A DNA stretch of 6,080 bases from a virus (Duplodnaviria; Heunggongvirae; Uroviricota; Caudoviricetes): the IMG/VR virus record IMGVR_UViG_2713896775_000008; one strand, 5' to 3'. Made by a program: the position numbers and the translations under genes. Numbering within the stretch: the first letter of the stretch is position 1; each line of letters begins with the position of its first letter. The notes under the pieces were generated by a model. The model saw only the letters and a list, made by a program, of their open reading frames with translations. It was not told where the DNA came from and made no database searches. This document shows positions 733 through 6,080 of the stretch, one piece after another.

Positions 733-957
733 TCGCACCTACCGGAAACAACGCGCGGCGCTCTTTACTCGTTCGTCTATAACGTGGGCGCAGGCAATTT
801 CAGAACATCTACTCTTCTTCGCAAAATAAACCAGGGCGATATCAAGGGCGCATGTGACCAGCTACGTCGCTGGGCATACGCTGGCGGTAAGCAATGGAAA
901 GGCCTGATGACTCGTCGTGAGATTGAGCGTGAGGTCTGTTTGTGGGGGCAACAATGA
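733..957 (+). pseudogene. endolysin (phage lysozyme) 3' remnant, 5' two-thirds missing
   Basis: The frame reads [74 protein letters not shown], which matches from memory the C-terminal ~75 aa of P21-type lambdoid endolysins. An in-frame TGA lies at 730-732 and there is no start or lysozyme-like sequence upstream. The stop TGA (955-957) overlaps the Rz start in ATGA, the classical R-Rz junction. Confidence 0.75.
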
Positions 958-1418
958 GCAGGGTAACCGCGATTATCTCCGCTCTGGTTATCTGCATCAT
1001 CGTCTGCCTGTCATGGGCTGTTAATCATTACCGTGATAACGCCATTACCTACAAAGCCCAGCGCGACAAAAATGCCAGAGAACTGAAGCTGGCGAACGCG
1101 GCAATTACTGACATGCAGATGCGTCAGCGTGATGTTGCTGCGCTCGATGCAAAATACACGAAGGAGTTAGCTGATGCGAAAGCTGAAAATGATGCTCTGC
1201 GTGATGATGTTGCCGCTGGTCGTCGTCGGTTGCACATCAAAGCAGTCTGTCAGTCAGTGCGTGAAGCCACCACCGCCTCCGGCGTGGATAATGCAGCCTC
1301 CCCCCGACTGGCAGACACCGCTGAACGGGATTATTTCACCCTCCGGGAACGACTGGTAATGATGCAGGCCCAACTTGAAGGTGCTCAGCAATACATAACC
1401 GAGCAGTGTTTAAAGTAA
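954..1418 (+). CDS. Rz: Rz i-spanin (inner-membrane spanin subunit)
   Basis: 154-aa product [60 protein letters not shown]..., near-identical over most of its length to lambda Rz as I recall it. It has an N-terminal transmembrane segment and a coiled-coil periplasmic domain. The ATG at 954 overlaps the endolysin remnant stop. Confidence 0.9.
1174..1359 (+). CDS. Rz1: Rz1 o-spanin (outer-membrane lipoprotein), nested in the +1 frame of Rz
   Basis: 61-aa product [61 protein letters not shown] with a lipobox (VVVGC) and proline-rich mature region. A strong AAGGAG Shine-Dalgarno lies at 1161-1166, 7 nt before the ATG. It is wholly embedded in Rz, as in lambda, and corresponds to rzoR-type genes of Rac-like prophages. 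Confidence 0.85.
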
Positions 1419-1439
1419 AATCTTAACTACAATATGATT

Positions 1440-1540
1440 CATTTTGATGATTGTTTCATAAGGAACAGTGAAGTAAGATCTAAGAGGAGTTAAATTTTAT
1501 ACAGTATAATCATAATATTGCAGCAAGGTGGTTATAATTG
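1440..1540 (+). promoter_or_regulatory. AT-rich putative promoter region upstream of trkG
   Basis: AT-rich intergenic tract with two TATAAT hexamers (1505-1510 and 1533-1538) and an AAGGTGG Shine-Dalgarno at 1525-1531. I could not pair either -10 hexamer with a good -35 at 16-18 bp, so the exact promoter is not defined. Confidence 0.3.
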
Positions 1541-1555
1541 AAAGAATATTTAGAT

Positions 1556-3013
1556 ATGAATACATCTCATGTAAGAGTTGTTACTCATATGTGTGGGTTC
1601 CTGGTTTGGCTCTATAGTCTTTCAATGTTGCCACCAATGGTTGTAGCATTGTTTTATAAAGAAAAAAGCCTGTTCGTTTTCTTTATAACTTTCGTTATAT
1701 TTTTTTGCATTGGTGGCGGAGCGTGGTATACAACTAAGAAATCTGGCATTCAATTACGTACCCGTGATGGGTTTATTATAATTGTAATGTTTTGGATTTT
1801 GTTTTCTGTTATTAGTGCATTCCCTTTATGGATTGACTCAGAACTTAATTTAACGTTCATTGATGCTCTGTTTGAAGGGGTTTCTGGAATAACAACAACA
1901 GGAGCAACTGTAATTGATGATGTTAGTTCATTACCTCGGGCATATTTGTACTATCGGTCACAGTTAAATTTTATAGGTGGTTTAGGAGTTATTGTTCTGG
2001 CGGTTGCTGTATTGCCATTATTGGGTATTGGTGGTACAAAGCTTTATCAGTCAGAAATGCCGGGGCCATTTAAGGATGACAAACTCACTCCCCGCCTGGC
2101 CGATACGTCACGGACACTGTGGATAACTTATTCTTTATTAGGTATTGCTTGTATTGTCTGTTATAGACTTGCAGGAATGCCTTTGTTTGATGCTATTTGT
2201 CACGGGATTTCCACAGTTTCGCTTGGTGGTTTCTCAACTCATAGCGAGAGTATCGGATATTTTAATAACTATTTGGTTGAGCTGGTGGCTGGTTCTTTTT
2301 CCCTGCTATCGGCTTTCAACTTCACTCTTTGGTATATTGTTATTAGCAGGAAAACGATAAAACCTTTAATCAGAGATATTGAACTTCGTTTCTTTCTGTT
2401 AATAGCCTTAGGGGTGATCATTGTTACCTCTTTCCAGGTCTGGCATATAGGTATGTATGACTTGCATGGAAGTTTTATTCATTCGTTTTTTCTTGCCAGC
2501 TCCATGCTCACTGATAATGGTTTAGCTACGCAGGATTATGCAAACTGGCCCACGCACACGATAGTGTTTTTGCTGTCGTCAAGTTTCTTTGGGGGATGTA
2601 TAGGTTCAACTTGTGGTGGAATTAAGTCACTTCGATTTCTTATACTTTTCAAACAAAGCAAACACGAGATAAATCAGCTTTCTCATCCCAGAGCGTTGTT
2701 GAGTGTAAATGTAGGAGGGAAGATAGTTACAGATCGTGTAATGAGGTCTGTATGGAGTTTCTTTTTTCTTTATACTCTCTTCACGGTGTTTTTTATACTG
2801 GTGTTAAATGGTATGGGATATGATTTTCTTACATCATTTGCAACAGTGGCTGCATGTATTAATAATATGGGATTAGGTTTTGGGGCTACTGCATCGTCAT
2901 TCGGAGTGCTTAATGACATTGCAAAATATTTAATGTGCATAGCTATGATTCTTGGTCGCCTTGAAATTTATCCTGTTATTATATTGTTTTCAGGTTTTTT
3001 TTGGCGCTCCTAA
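1556..3013 (+). CDS. trkG: Trk-system K+ uptake protein TrkG (TrkH/KtrB family membrane transporter)
   Basis: 485-aa polytopic membrane protein starting MNTSHVRVVTHMCGFLVWLYSLSMLPP..., with repeated glycine-containing selectivity-filter-like segments typical of TrkH-family proteins (e.g. TTTGATV, LGVIVLAVAVLPLLGIGG). It matches E. coli TrkG, which is known to reside in the Rac prophage. GC content is markedly lower than the flanks. An alternative TTG start at 1538 sits 6 nt after the AAGGTGG Shine-Dalgarno and would add 6 aa (MKEYLD). Confidence 0.93.
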   Translation: MNTSHVRVVTHMCGFLVWLYSLSMLPPMVVALFYKEKSLFVFFITFVIFFCIGGGAWYTTKKSGIQLRTRDGFIIIVMFWILFSVISAFPLWIDSELNLTFIDALFEGVSGITTTGATVIDDVSSLPRAYLYYRSQLNFIGGLGVIVLAVAVLPLLGIGGTKLYQSEMPGPFKDDKLTPRLADTSRTLWITYSLLGIACIVCYRLAGMPLFDAICHGISTVSLGGFSTHSESIGYFNNYLVELVAGSFSLLSAFNFTLWYIVISRKTIKPLIRDIELRFFLLIALGVIIVTSFQVWHIGMYDLHGSFIHSFFLASSMLTDNGLATQDYANWPTHTIVFLLSSSFFGGCIGSTCGGIKSLRFLILFKQSKHEINQLSHPRALLSVNVGGKIVTDRVMRSVWSFFFLYTLFTVFFILVLNGMGYDFLTSFATVAACINNMGLGFGATASSFGVLNDIAKYLMCIAMILGRLEIYPVIILFSGFFWRS

Positions 3014-3099
3014 TATATGGCTGATTTATAATTGTGAGTTTAATATTATATTGACTCACTCATTGATCCAATACCTAACTTTACCAGCAACACCTCCGC

Positions 3100-3134
3100 C
3101 CCCAGTAGCACTGGCTGCTGGGGTGCGTTTTATT
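3100..3134 (+). terminator. putative terminator downstream of trkG
   Basis: Imperfect stem CCCCAGTAGC (3100-3109) / GCTGCTGGGG (3114-3123) with loop ACTG and one mismatch, followed after TGCG by TTTTATT (3128-3134). The U-tract is not directly adjacent to the stem. Confidence 0.4.
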
Positions 3135-3150
3135 CATAAAGCAAGGCTGT

Positions 3151-3582
3151 ATGAGCGAGAAATTAAAGATAGTCTATCGCCCATTACAAGAATTGTCACC
3201 GTATGCGCACAACGCCAGGACGCACAGTACTGAGCAGGTGGCACAACTGGTAGAAAGTATTAAGCAATTCGGCTGGACTAATCCGGTGCTGATTGACGAA
3301 AAGGGCGAAATTATTGCGGGTCACGGTCGTGTTATGGCGGCTGAAATGCTCAAAATGGATTCTGTTCCGGTCATTGTTCTGTCTGGCCTGACGGATGAGC
3401 AGAAAAAGGCGTACCGCCTGGCAGATAATCGCCTACCGATGAATGCTGGCTGGGATGAAGATCTGTTGCGGATGGAGCTGTCGGACCTAATCAATGCTGA
3501 TTTTGATGTCTCCCTGACAGGCTTCGGCCCGACAGAAATTGATGAACTGTTGACGGATGTTTTGCCCGGTATCGGGCCTTAA
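3151..3582 (+). CDS. ParB-like nuclease-domain protein (ParB N-terminal/sulfiredoxin fold), possibly a truncated ParB-methyltransferase
   Basis: 143-aa ORF with AAGG 4 nt upstream of the ATG. The N-terminus (KIVYRPLQELSPYAHNARTHS...GEIIAGHGRVMAA) carries the hallmark ParB N-terminal domain motifs seen in standalone ParB-like proteins and in phage ParB-DNA methyltransferase fusions. It ends where the methyltransferase domain would start in such fusions. Confidence 0.75.
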   Translation: MSEKLKIVYRPLQELSPYAHNARTHSTEQVAQLVESIKQFGWTNPVLIDEKGEIIAGHGRVMAAEMLKMDSVPVIVLSGLTDEQKKAYRLADNRLPMNAGWDEDLLRMELSDLINADFDVSLTGFGPTEIDELLTDVLPGIGP

Positions 3583-3585
3583 TTT

Positions 3586-4113
3586 TTACTCTGGTTTTTG
3601 TGGCCATTCAGGATTTGCCGTATCCACACGGCTGACCAGAACACTGTAGCGTTCCCATGCTTCCAGTCGTGTGCGTTCCTCGTCTGTTGCCATATTCAGC
3701 CTGACAGCGCGTTCCAGCGGTTGGATGACTGATTCAGCTTCGGAAAGCAATGCGGCCTTTTGTGATTCGGCCTGTTGTTGTTGCTCGTCTGCCGTATAAA
3801 TCCGTTTAACCACAGCTCCGTCCCTAAACATCCACTTACTGGAATCATCAGCGCAGCGGTTGGCTGTAATATCTGGAACCTCAACGACGCTATAACCTTC
3901 AGGGTTAAGCGTGGAGGCATCTTTGGTGATGGCGACAATAATATTATTTGCATCGTAAACAATCTTTATTGTGTCTGGCTGAAAGTTTTTCACTTCCTCA
4001 TACCAGTTTTTTCCGTCTTCGGACCATAACCAGATAACATCAAAATTCTTTGTTAGCTGATATTGTTCTTTTGTTTTTGGATTTCCAGACTTAATATTTT
4101 TTAAATGCTGCAT
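3586..4113 (-). CDS. tfa: phage tail fibre assembly protein (Tfa chaperone)
   Basis: 175-aa minus-strand ORF. Its C-terminal region ([30 protein letters not shown]) matches the conserved C-terminus of lambda/e14/Rac Tfa proteins as I recall them. An AGGTG Shine-Dalgarno sits 6 nt upstream of the ATG, and the gene starts 3 nt after the tail-fibre cassette stop, the usual stf-tfa coupling. Confidence 0.88.
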
Positions 4114-4116
4114 AAA

Positions 4117-5121
4117 TTACACCTGTACGACGTTATACCATGTGCCATTGATGTATTTTTGTATTGGTCTGAATACTGCCGGATCATCGCCATCAACTGC
4201 ACCGATAATGCCAAGCCCCGTAATTGCATGACCTGATTTCTCATACATCACGCCTTTTTGCATAGTCTGAACAACACGTGTACCAAGTCGGACATCTCTC
4301 ACATAACGTGAGTCAAAATTACCATAATTGCCGGGAATAACTTGCGCACCGCAAAGCCAGTTGCCATTGTTGTCCATGTACGCCTGACCATCGGTGCCAT
4401 TGGCTGTCCTTGAGTTATTAATCATGTAGATGCCAAATTGCTTATTCCCCAGTCCACCAATCATAAATTTGCGATCAGCGTGGTCCTGACGAAGTAATGC
4501 CTGCGCACCATCGGTGGATACCGCATTGCGTCCCAAAATAACATTCTGGTCACGCATATGAATCCACATGCCGGTACTACTGTTAATTGCAAAACGGTTT
4601 GCAAATATATCCCCTGTAACATCAAGACCATGCCCCATGCTTATCCGACCAGTTCTGAGATTAAGCGTAAAGGGGCGTAGTGGCCCTATATCACCATTTT
4701 CTCCCTCATTCTCTCGTGTAGGGATGATATGCAGGCATTCTTCAGAACGACGAAAAATAGCACCAAAAGATGAATTAAATATCCTCAGTGCATTGACTGT
4801 CGATATTTTTACTTCACTGCTGAAAAGGGCTTTAACAAGGACAGACAAAGCATCCCATTTAAGAGTCATCAGGTCTTTTGTTGTGGTGCTCTGGCGGCTT
4901 CTCCATTTGAAATATTCATTGCCGTTGTCGCCTGTTTCAAACCACATGTATGAATCAGTGTCGCTGTCGGCATTATTTTTAAAACCAATCTTTGCCCAGT
5001 CAGTATTTCTAATCCAGGCAAGGATTGAGTCGTTTTCAAAAGTAAGCCCACCGGACAAGGTATCGCCATTCTTTTGCACGGCGTTCCTGGCCCTGTTTAC
5101 CGTTTCCTGTAAACCGAGGTT
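4117..5121 (-). CDS. stf: tail fibre C-terminal (receptor-binding) variable cassette, partial and start-less
   Basis: Minus-strand open frame of about 334 codons with tail-fibre-like composition (Gly/Asn/Thr-rich, ...GDTLSGGLTFENDSILAWIRN...GTWYNVVQV), immediately followed by tfa. The frame is open from just after an in-frame TAA at 5122-5124 inside the crossover site. It has no ATG or Shine-Dalgarno; the ORF-track start at 5079 is an internal GTG. This is the expected structure of the silent variable half of an invertible tail-fibre segment. Confidence 0.78.
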   Translation of the reverse strand, partial: NLGLQETVNRARNAVQKNGDTLSGGLTFENDSILAWIRNTDWAKIGFKNNADSDTDSYMWFETGDNGNEYFKWRSRQSTTTKDLMTLKWDALSVLVKALFSSEVKISTVNALRIFNSSFGAIFRRSEECLHIIPTRENEGENGDIGPLRPFTLNLRTGRISMGHGLDVTGDIFANRFAINSSTGMWIHMRDQNVILGRNAVSTDGAQALLRQDHADRKFMIGGLGNKQFGIYMINNSRTANGTDGQAYMDNNGNWLCGAQVIPGNYGNFDSRYVRDVRLGTRVVQTMQKGVMYEKSGHAITGLGIIGAVDGDDPAVFRPIQKYINGTWYNVVQV

Positions 5122-5129
5122 TTAGATAA
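5104..5129. other. gix/pix/cix-type 26-bp crossover site for a serine DNA invertase
   Basis: TTCCTGTAAACC-GA-GGTTTTAGATAA: two 12-bp half-sites in imperfect inverted symmetry around a central GA dinucleotide. From memory it differs from the phage Mu gix site at about one position. It lies 55 bp upstream of the invertase start and at the 5' boundary of the tail-fibre cassette. Confidence 0.75.
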
Positions 5130-5183
5130 TGGCGGTTTCTGGCCTGCATGGCATGATTTGTGCTTTTGGACGGGAGATTCAGC

Positions 5184-5292
5184 GTGCTGATTGGCTATGT
5201 AAGGGTATCAACAAATGACCAGAATACAGACCTGCAACGAAACGCTCTTGTTTGTGCAGGATGTGAACAAATATTTGAAGATAAATTAAGCG
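5184..5292 (+). pseudogene. pin: Gin/Pin/Cin/Hin-family serine DNA invertase, N-terminal 37 codons only (interrupted by IS26)
   Basis: The frame from GTG 5184 reads [37 protein letters not shown], the diagnostic serine-recombinase N-terminus with catalytic Ser in the YVRVSTxDQ motif, matching Pin/Gin as I recall them. The reading frame runs straight into the IS26 inverted repeat at 5293. Alternative in-frame starts are GTG 5160 and TTG 5166. Confidence 0.85.
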
Positions 5293-5306
5293 GGCACTGT
5301 TGCAAA
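5293..5306 (+). repeat. IS26 left terminal inverted repeat (14 bp)
   Basis: Exact GGCACTGTTGCAAA. The 8 bp immediately outside (ATTAAGCG, 5285-5292) would be the target-site duplication if this was a simple insertion, but the right flank is not in the window. Confidence 0.85.
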
Positions 5307-5355
5307 TAGTCGGTGGTGATAAACTTATCATCCCCTTTTGCTGATGGAGCTGCAC

Positions 5356-6060
5356 ATGAACCCATTCAAAGGCCGGCATTTTCAGCGTGACATCATTCTG
5401 TGGGCCGTACGCTGGTACTGCAAATACGGCATCAGTTACCGTGAGCTGCAGGAGATGCTGGCTGAACGCGGAGTGAATGTCGATCACTCCACGATTTACC
5501 GCTGGGTTCAGCGTTATGCGCCTGAAATGGAAAAACGGCTGCGCTGGTACTGGCGTAACCCTTCCGATCTTTGCCCGTGGCACATGGATGAAACCTACGT
5601 GAAGGTCAATGGCCGCTGGGCGTATCTGTACCGGGCCGTCGACAGCCGGGGCCGCACTGTCGATTTTTATCTCTCCTCCCGTCGTAACAGCAAAGCTGCA
5701 TACCGGTTTCTGGGTAAAATCCTCAACAACGTGAAGAAGTGGCAGATCCCGCGATTCATCAACACGGATAAAGCGCCCGCCTATGGTCGCGCGCTTGCTC
5801 TGCTCAAACGCGAAGGCCGGTGCCCGTCTGACGTTGAACACCGACAGATTAAGTACCGGAACAACGTGATTGAATGCGATCATGGCAAACTGAAACGGAT
5901 AATCGGCGCCACGCTGGGATTTAAATCCATGAAGACGGCTTACGCCACCATCAAAGGTATTGAGGTGATGCGTGCACTACGCAAAGGCCAGGCCTCAGCA
6001 TTTTATTATGGTGATCCCCTGGGCGAAATGCGCCTGGTAAGCAGAGTTTTTGAAATGTAA
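5356..6060 (+). CDS. tnpA: IS26 transposase Tnp26 (DDE transposase, IS6 family)
   Basis: 234-aa ORF MNPFKGRHFQRDIILWAVRWYCKYGISYRELQEMLAERGVNVDHSTIYRWVQRYAPEMEKRLRW...LVSRVFEM, recognised as the IS26 transposase. The ORF-track start at 5338 adds 6 unlikely residues; the ATG at 5356 gives the canonical length. Confidence 0.95.
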   Translation: MNPFKGRHFQRDIILWAVRWYCKYGISYRELQEMLAERGVNVDHSTIYRWVQRYAPEMEKRLRWYWRNPSDLCPWHMDETYVKVNGRWAYLYRAVDSRGRTVDFYLSSRRNSKAAYRFLGKILNNVKKWQIPRFINTDKAPAYGRALALLKREGRCPSDVEHRQIKYRNNVIECDHGKLKRIIGATLGFKSMKTAYATIKGIEVMRALRKGQASAFYYGDPLGEMRLVSRVFEM

Positions 6061-6080
6061 GGCCTTTGAATAAGACAAAA

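Follow-up and report, generated by a model that had tools for sequence, protein, structure and literature searches.

The 26-bp sequence TTCCTGTAAACCGAGGTTTTAGATAA, on the plus strand at positions 5104-5129 of a 6,080-nucleotide stretch of caudoviricete DNA (IMG/VR record IMGVR_UViG_2713896775_000008; the whole stretch analysed is hereafter called the window), is with a probability of about 90% the invertase-proximal, right-end site of a DNA inversion switch of the Mu G or Shigella B type, surviving as a fossil within what extensive deletion has left of a Rac-like prophage. The locus itself is not a functional invertible switch: the three features that define such a system, a second site, a complete invertase and a constant tail-fibre part (Sc) served by two cassettes, are absent. 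The switch is inert for want of one site, of the recombinase and of the expressed part of the gene; the site is unable to promote inversion at this locus and is without current function. The survivors are the right-end site, one silent in-frame cassette, its chaperone gene and, probably, the recombinational enhancer. The first-pass annotation had interpreted the 26-mer as an invertase crossover site, which our analysis supports, and had missed the defunct state of the system. The features of the window are collected in Table 1.

Table 1. Coordinates of the crossover site and of the other features of the window.
Feature	Position	Strand	Basis or remark
Early-region prophage genes	up to ~750	-	Pfam scans and RefSeq annotation of identical genomes
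Lysozyme gene, 5'-truncated	~739-957	+	Pfam scans and RefSeq annotation
Rz	954-1418	+	Possible nested Rz1 ORF at 1174-1359
trkG	1556-3013	+	In AT-rich block, 31-41% G+C
ynaK (ParB-like)	3151-3582	+	
Deletion joint, Rac-type ynaK region / tfa 3' end	3564-3571	.	Two-block alignment to L003
Tail-fibre assembly (chaperone) gene, U/Tfa type, intact, 175 aa	3586-4113	-	Pfam Caudo_TAP E = 4.8e-37; so annotated in matching genomes
Silent tail-fibre C-terminal variable cassette (Sv, Mu S / G(+)-type)	4117-5121	-	Pfam Gp34_trimer E = 5e-11
DNA-invertase crossover site, bixR allele, 26 bp	5104-5129	.	Exact sequence and matches to published sites
Inner half-site, cassette side	5104-5115		
GA crossover dinucleotide	5116-5117		
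Outer half-site, invertase side	5118-5129		
Spacer, 54 nt, from site to invertase GTG (5184)	5130-5183	+	
5' fragment of Gin/PinB-type serine invertase gene, 37 codons	5184-5293	+	Pfam Resolvase N-terminal domain E = 6e-08
Inferred Fis-dependent recombinational enhancer	5202-5273, approximate	.	Homology to P1 cin enhancer region
IS26 (terminal inverted repeat GGCACTGTTGCAAA from 5293; transposase 5356-6060)	5293-6080, runs past window end	+	Pfam DDE_Tnp_IS240 E = 2.4e-48; annotated IS6-like element IS26 family transposase

Written as two halves around its core, the site reads TTCCTGTAAACC-GA-GGTTTTAGATAA, and its architecture of 12-bp imperfect inverted half-sites with a 2-bp core, as first described, was confirmed exactly. 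The left half-site and the reverse complement of the right one (TTATCTAAAACC) are the same at 7/12 positions, and the inner AAACC/GGTTT around the GA core form a perfect palindrome. The sequence occurs once in the window, where no second match was found at ≤3 mismatches on either strand, and 0/200 dinucleotide shuffles of the window gave a match to the site. Within the outer half-site, a TAA on the minus strand (5124 to 5122) lies in frame with the tail-fibre cassette, the minus-strand translation from 5133 to 4117 reading AII*NLGLQETVNRARNAVQKNGDTLSGG... This stop stems from the bixR allele: position 21 of the site is A in the window and G in Mu, hence the TAA where Mu gixR has CAA (Gln). The first-pass annotation had noticed the stop, which is real, and had called it expected for the unexpressed orientation; as a trait of one allele it is compatible with a silent position, and it does not correspond to any general expectation of silent cassettes.

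The B segment of Shigella boydii and Shigella sonnei is reportedly acted on by PinB, with bixR as its invertase-proximal site, in work said to be that of Tominaga et al. from 1991. The site sequences of the Din family, including that of bixR, the neighbour of pinB in the invertible B segment of Shigella (D00660), are compiled in Table 3 of PMC3241671, and the window 26-mer is identical to bixR as tabulated there at 26/26 positions. The agreement amounts to 25/26 with gixL/gixR, 24/26 with bixL, 22/26 with hixL, 20/26 with cixR, 18/26 with cixL and with pixL, 17/26 with pixR and 15/26 with hixR. The Mu, P1 and e14 sites were also confirmed directly in annotated records: both annotated boundaries of the Mu G segment carry a gix 26-mer with 1 mismatch to the window site, the annotated cixL and cixR of P1 differ from it by 8 and 6 mismatches, and the e14 sites by 8-9. 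SfMu, a functional Shigella phage, carries the very same 26-mer 54 nt upstream of gin.

As a chance baseline, 300 random Markov sequences of the size and composition of the window were compared with the known sites, and their maxima were 20/26 for bixR and 21/26 for the whole set of nine sites. Chance is thereby excluded as the source of the match, and the idea of a fortuitous partial palindrome with no tie to invertases, for which nothing speaks except that short AT-rich partial palindromes are common, retains a vanishingly small probability; it would also have to account for flanks that are homologous on both sides to the Mu, SfMu and P1 switches, and for the 70 independent occurrences of the 26-mer described below, all of which adjoin an invertase gene. 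To judge from these identities, the 26-mer is a crossover site of the Din family (Hin/Gin/Cin/Pin/PinB), within the gix/bix subgroup. The earlier wording of a "near-canonical" gix/pix-type site was right about the Din class and understated the match, which is complete for both the published bixR and the right-end site of SfMu. The sequence of the site and its biology are thus already known, the site being identical to a published one and the system a textbook one.

The exact 26-mer was found in 70 IMG/VR contigs. All 70 loci share the layout of the window, in which a 54-nt spacer is followed by a GTG-initiated invertase open reading frame; the recurrence in unrelated contexts that the first-pass annotation had named as a refutation was thus looked for and not seen, 70/70 copies being invertase-adjacent. 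The invertase is full length (193-199 aa) in 36 of these loci and stops at codon 60-65 in 22, while the remaining frames run off the contig end (5) or are otherwise truncated (7). With a partner defined as an inverted copy at ≤4 mismatches, 30/70 loci carry one on the cassette side, 2.9-3.3 kb off: the published bixL (TTCCTGTAAACCGAGGTATTCGATAA) in 21 of them, a gix-type site in 2 and other variants with 1-4 mismatches in 7. In the intact relative L055, bixL lies 3053 bp from bixR. Two IMG/VR contigs show unusual arrangements. One of them (L061) has two exact 26-mers in direct orientation (5181-5206 and 6380-6405), 1.2 kb apart; a truncated invertase gene comes after one of them and a full-length one after the other, so that the module of site and invertase forms a tandem duplication there. 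In the other (L030; sites at 544-569 and 3496-3521), invertase genes stand at both ends of the segment.

Among complete E. coli genomes, the 253 bp around the site (window 5040-5292) were matched by megablast in 824/5426, and among the matches listed these sequences fall under a tail-protein and/or recombinase annotation, with the exception of one partial match. Neither the exact 26-mer nor a degenerate gix/bix pattern had any match in the GTDB species-representative genomes, a zero that says nothing about range since such sites occur in strain-specific prophages.

Comparison with the well-studied switches shows what this locus has kept and what it has lost. It shares all 26 bp and the GA core with bixR of the B segment, but it lacks bixL, the constant tail-fibre part and a complete pin gene, and its carrier is a Rac-like lambdoid remnant disrupted by IS26. 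The spacing of 54 nt to the invertase start is equal to that of Mu gix and of the right-end site of SfMu, the start of Mu gin is identical to the whole invertase fragment of the window and the S/U genes of Mu are homologous to its cassette; the Mu and SfMu switches are, however, complete and working, whereas that of the window is not. The pixL/pixR sites of e14, inverted by PinE and also by PinQ, agree with the window in class, architecture and 54-nt spacing, and e14 is likewise an E. coli cryptic prophage, yet their core is AA instead of GA and the e14 switch is complete and demonstrably active. The cix sites of P1 (Cin) and the hix sites of Salmonella (Hin) again measure 26 bp around a 2-bp core, and the invertase genes hold a Fis-dependent enhancer in their 5' part, but Hin controls a flagellin promoter and not tail fibres, and in P1 it is cixL that overlaps the 3' end of cin instead of preceding its 5' end. 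The position of the site had been likened to that in Mu, P1 and e14; a boundary between cassette and invertase it is, at the 54-nt distance of Mu and e14, while P1 makes a poor analogy.

On the invertase side of the site, little of the recombinase is left. The fragment begins with GTG and matches the start of Mu gin at every position; this homology ends at 5293, the terminal repeat of IS26, which interrupts the gene after codon 37. It keeps Ser9, the catalytic serine of Gin (PMC3575834), and is devoid of the rest of the catalytic domain and of the DNA-binding domain, so that a complete serine invertase (~190 aa, with catalytic domain and helix-turn-helix) is absent. The stub is annotated as an incomplete recombinase family protein in matching genomes. 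A simple scan of 4950-5400 for sigma-70 consensus promoters found none, including for the invertase. The enhancer has probably fared better: the P1 record places the Cin enhancer at cin +19..+90, which aligns with window 5202-5273, and IS26 begins beyond this predicted element. By this homology, the Fis-dependent enhancer in the 5' coding region of the invertase is probably retained intact. For comparison, the Hin enhancer measures 65 bp and lies ~100 bp from hixL (PMC3798978).

On the other side, the cassette lacks the constant N-terminal part and a genuine start, and its frame is closed upstream by the TAA in the site. Its DNA is ~88-92% identical to the S/U genes of Mu, D108, P1, P7 and SfMu, and in the PGAP annotation it is a phage tail protein with an incomplete N-terminus. 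The intact relative L055 carries a cassette 100% identical to that of the window, as does L039 over at least the first 346 nt, where its contig ends. When the L055 segment was inverted in silico at the central dinucleotides, both sites were regenerated and an open tail-fibre gene of 819 aa resulted, with the cassette in frame with Sc; the inverted junction reads ...AAVIEY|LGLQETVNRARNAVQKNGDTLSGG..., and 333/333 compared residues after it are those of the window cassette. Since the flipped L055 gives this fusion, the window cassette is a bona fide in-frame alternative C-terminus in the silent position.

It could be the cassette, and not the site, that is under retention, the promoterless Sv and its chaperone being expressed alone with a function for the host, such as a block to phage adsorption, and the site a passenger. 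We regard this as very improbable indeed. Both reading frames are undamaged and have identical counterparts in the cassettes of intact switches, and the fragment is common, being found in the 824/5426 complete E. coli genomes given above and at ≥99% identity in 155 records; a precedent is offered by StfE2, a chimeric tail fibre of a cryptic prophage that inhibits phage T2 and is reported to block adsorption (PMC12529663). The cassette has, on the other hand, no start-codon context, promoter or constant part, its frame is shut by the TAA, the promoter scan was negative, and 100% identity to the cassettes of intact switches fits recent decay as well as selection.

The lost partner site was searched for at several levels. 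In the window, there is no partner at ≤8 mismatches, and an inverted-repeat search of the whole window returned no repeat that involves the site. One candidate, TGCTGGTAAAGTTAGGTATTGGATCA at 3064-3089 on the minus strand between trkG and ynaK, was rejected as a chance match: it agrees with bixR at 17/26 positions and with cixR at 19/26, and random sequences equal the former score against bixR in 25% of cases and the latter, against one of the nine sites, in 6%. The same sequence is present in the Rac prophage of K-12 (L008 4291-4316). Read as TGCTGGTAAAGT-TA-GGTATTGGATCA, it lies where the AT-rich trkG block ends on the right, and its outer half matches cixR at 11/12 positions while the whole stays at chance level. 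Chance also seems to explain a 16/18 match to the inverted repeat of IS26 at 2836-2853, within trkG.

The search was then a replicon-wide one. Twelve E. coli records, comprising chromosomes (e.g. that of strain TC24) and plasmids, match the window at 100% identity, and the query 5040-5310, in which the IS26 junction serves as an anchor, was run against all complete E. coli genomes. The TC24 chromosome contains 1 matching place at E ≤ 1e-5 and 3 at E ≤ 10. The match counts were the same on all 12 carrier replicons when the 26-mer was scrambled in the query; because the counts persist after scrambling, the weak extra places in TC24 are not copies of the site. A second copy was thus detected on none of the 12 replicons with this junction, in a search that a partner with fewer than ~20 contiguous matches would escape. 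The inverted copy that the first-pass annotation had proposed looking for was accordingly detected neither in the window nor on these replicons.

How the partner was lost is indicated by a relative at the Rac locus. The window aligns to this relative (L003) in two blocks, 740-3571 and 3564-5293, which have 8 bp of the window in common; in L003 they are separated by an additional 824 bp, which include a fragment of the second chaperone gene. In the window ynaK abuts the stop codon of tfa and, because of the joint at 3564-3571, its open reading frame counts 143 aa vs 87 aa in K-12. L003 and another relative, L004, are themselves deletion derivatives that have lost the left site along with the constant tail-fibre part, and in both the adjacent invertase frame ends after 64 codons. 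The deletion at 3564-3571 took away what remained of the invertible segment and, with it, the partner site. Sc with its promoter and the second Sv/chaperone cassette are absent, and only one cassette (3586-5121, minus strand) is left. The locus and its relatives show the decay of a switch step by step, from a nonsense mutation to deletions and then to the hit by IS26. The site marks the exact right boundary of the lost invertible segment, which explains both the "incomplete" N-terminus of the tail fibre and the 37-codon recombinase stub. Beyond such a correct annotation, its significance is small, as a textbook site published decades ago is here a non-functional relic.

The steps of inversion have been established for Hin and Gin (PMC3575834, PMC3798978) and can be transposed to the ancestor of this locus. 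In an intact switch, an invertase dimer would bind each of two inverted 26-bp sites, and both dimers would join the Fis-bound enhancer at the 5' end of the invertase gene. Ser9 would then cut all four strands at the central GA, the breaks being staggered by 2 nt, after which one subunit pair would turn by 180 degrees and the DNA would be religated. The ~3-kb segment would thereby flip, fusing either C-terminal cassette, accompanied by its chaperone gene, in frame to the constant N-terminal part. The exchange of tail-fibre C-terminus and chaperone would switch the host range. This locus would formerly have been the right end of such a switch.

Relatives of the window show that the same allele does recombine. 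Three pairs of contigs (L029/L071, L039/L055 and L053/L020) are orientation isomers, with collinear flanks and an inverted interior, whose switch points fall inside the two 26-mers. Because these breakpoints lie within the 26-mers, strand exchange at the identical site takes place in nature in these relatives. Near-identical segments (99.5% for L039/L055) occur in both orientations even in lineages whose adjacent invertase stops at codon 64; in L003, the invertase (10276-10470) is cut by a CGA-to-TGA change after codon 64. The presence of both orientations beside a 64-codon invertase stub suggests that inversion in these relatives was catalysed in trans. PinQ and PinE both invert the e14 P segment, and prophage invertases act in trans (PMC12529663); relatives found in both orientations with a truncated adjacent invertase bring comparative support for such activity of cryptic-prophage invertases. 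Intact pinR genes are found a few hundred bp off in the Rac-locus relatives L003, L004, L010 and L046.

The same observations raise the possibility that the orphan site of the window is itself still recombinogenic. A Din invertase provided in trans, by a resident Pin or by an infecting phage of the Mu/P1 type, would pair it with a distant gix/bix/pix-like or quasi site with the help of the retained enhancer, and large inversions or deletions of the replicon would follow. The perfect site, the seemingly intact enhancer region, the inversion of the e14 P segment in trans by PinQ and PinE (PMC12529663) and the occurrence in both orientations of relatives with the codon-64 stop all speak in its favour. 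Din invertases, however, require two inverted sites on one supercoiled molecule (PMC3798978), and a second copy was detected on 0/12 replicons with this junction. The arrangement is moreover the same in all records of 100% identity, and the TC24 chromosome has no other gin- or pinE-like 5' region at E ≤ 1e-5. We therefore consider recombination in trans at this site very unlikely. The broader proposal, that the orphan bixR and its enhancer, moving with IS26 on multiresistance plasmids of several enterobacterial genera, form a live target for invertases that resident Pin-type prophages or infecting Mu/P1-like phages supply in trans, whereby the carrier replicon would now and then undergo inversion, deletion or fusion at quasi-sites, or else that the promoterless cassette has its own host function, is given equally little credence. 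A fossil right end remains our preferred reading of the site.

The remnant seems to have travelled in association with IS26. This element occupies the same position of the invertase in E. coli strains S43 (L001) and TC24 (L002), in opposite orientations and with different DNA beyond, which fits an IS26-mediated rearrangement after a single insertion. In S43, the prophage element adjoins ybhC and possesses an integrase and an excisionase, and close trkG-pin relatives are located at the classical Rac locus near ompN. In TC24, the remnant lies in the chromosome beside plasmid genes (repA, parDE, parG). The whole remnant (trkG, Rz, tfa, stf', site, pin' and IS26) is also present on the Citrobacter freundii plasmid pA18-1 (L079, IncA), where Tn5403 also splits stf'. 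Plasmids of E. coli, Enterobacter kobei, Klebsiella michiganensis and K. quasipneumoniae carry the 253 bp around the site at 100% identity. A cryptic-prophage piece from E. coli that contains a K+ transporter gene seems to travel with IS26 resistance regions.

The left part of the window bears other marks of rearrangement. The rrrD-type lysozyme gene (window ~728-957) is without its 5' part and abuts the opposite-strand early genes DUF1317 and DUF1382, which points to the loss of a large stretch inside the prophage, between early-left region and lysis cassette. The trkG block (window 1420-3060) has 31-41% G+C vs ~46-53% in its flanks; an AT-rich block of this kind between the lysis genes and ynaK is typical of a foreign insertion.
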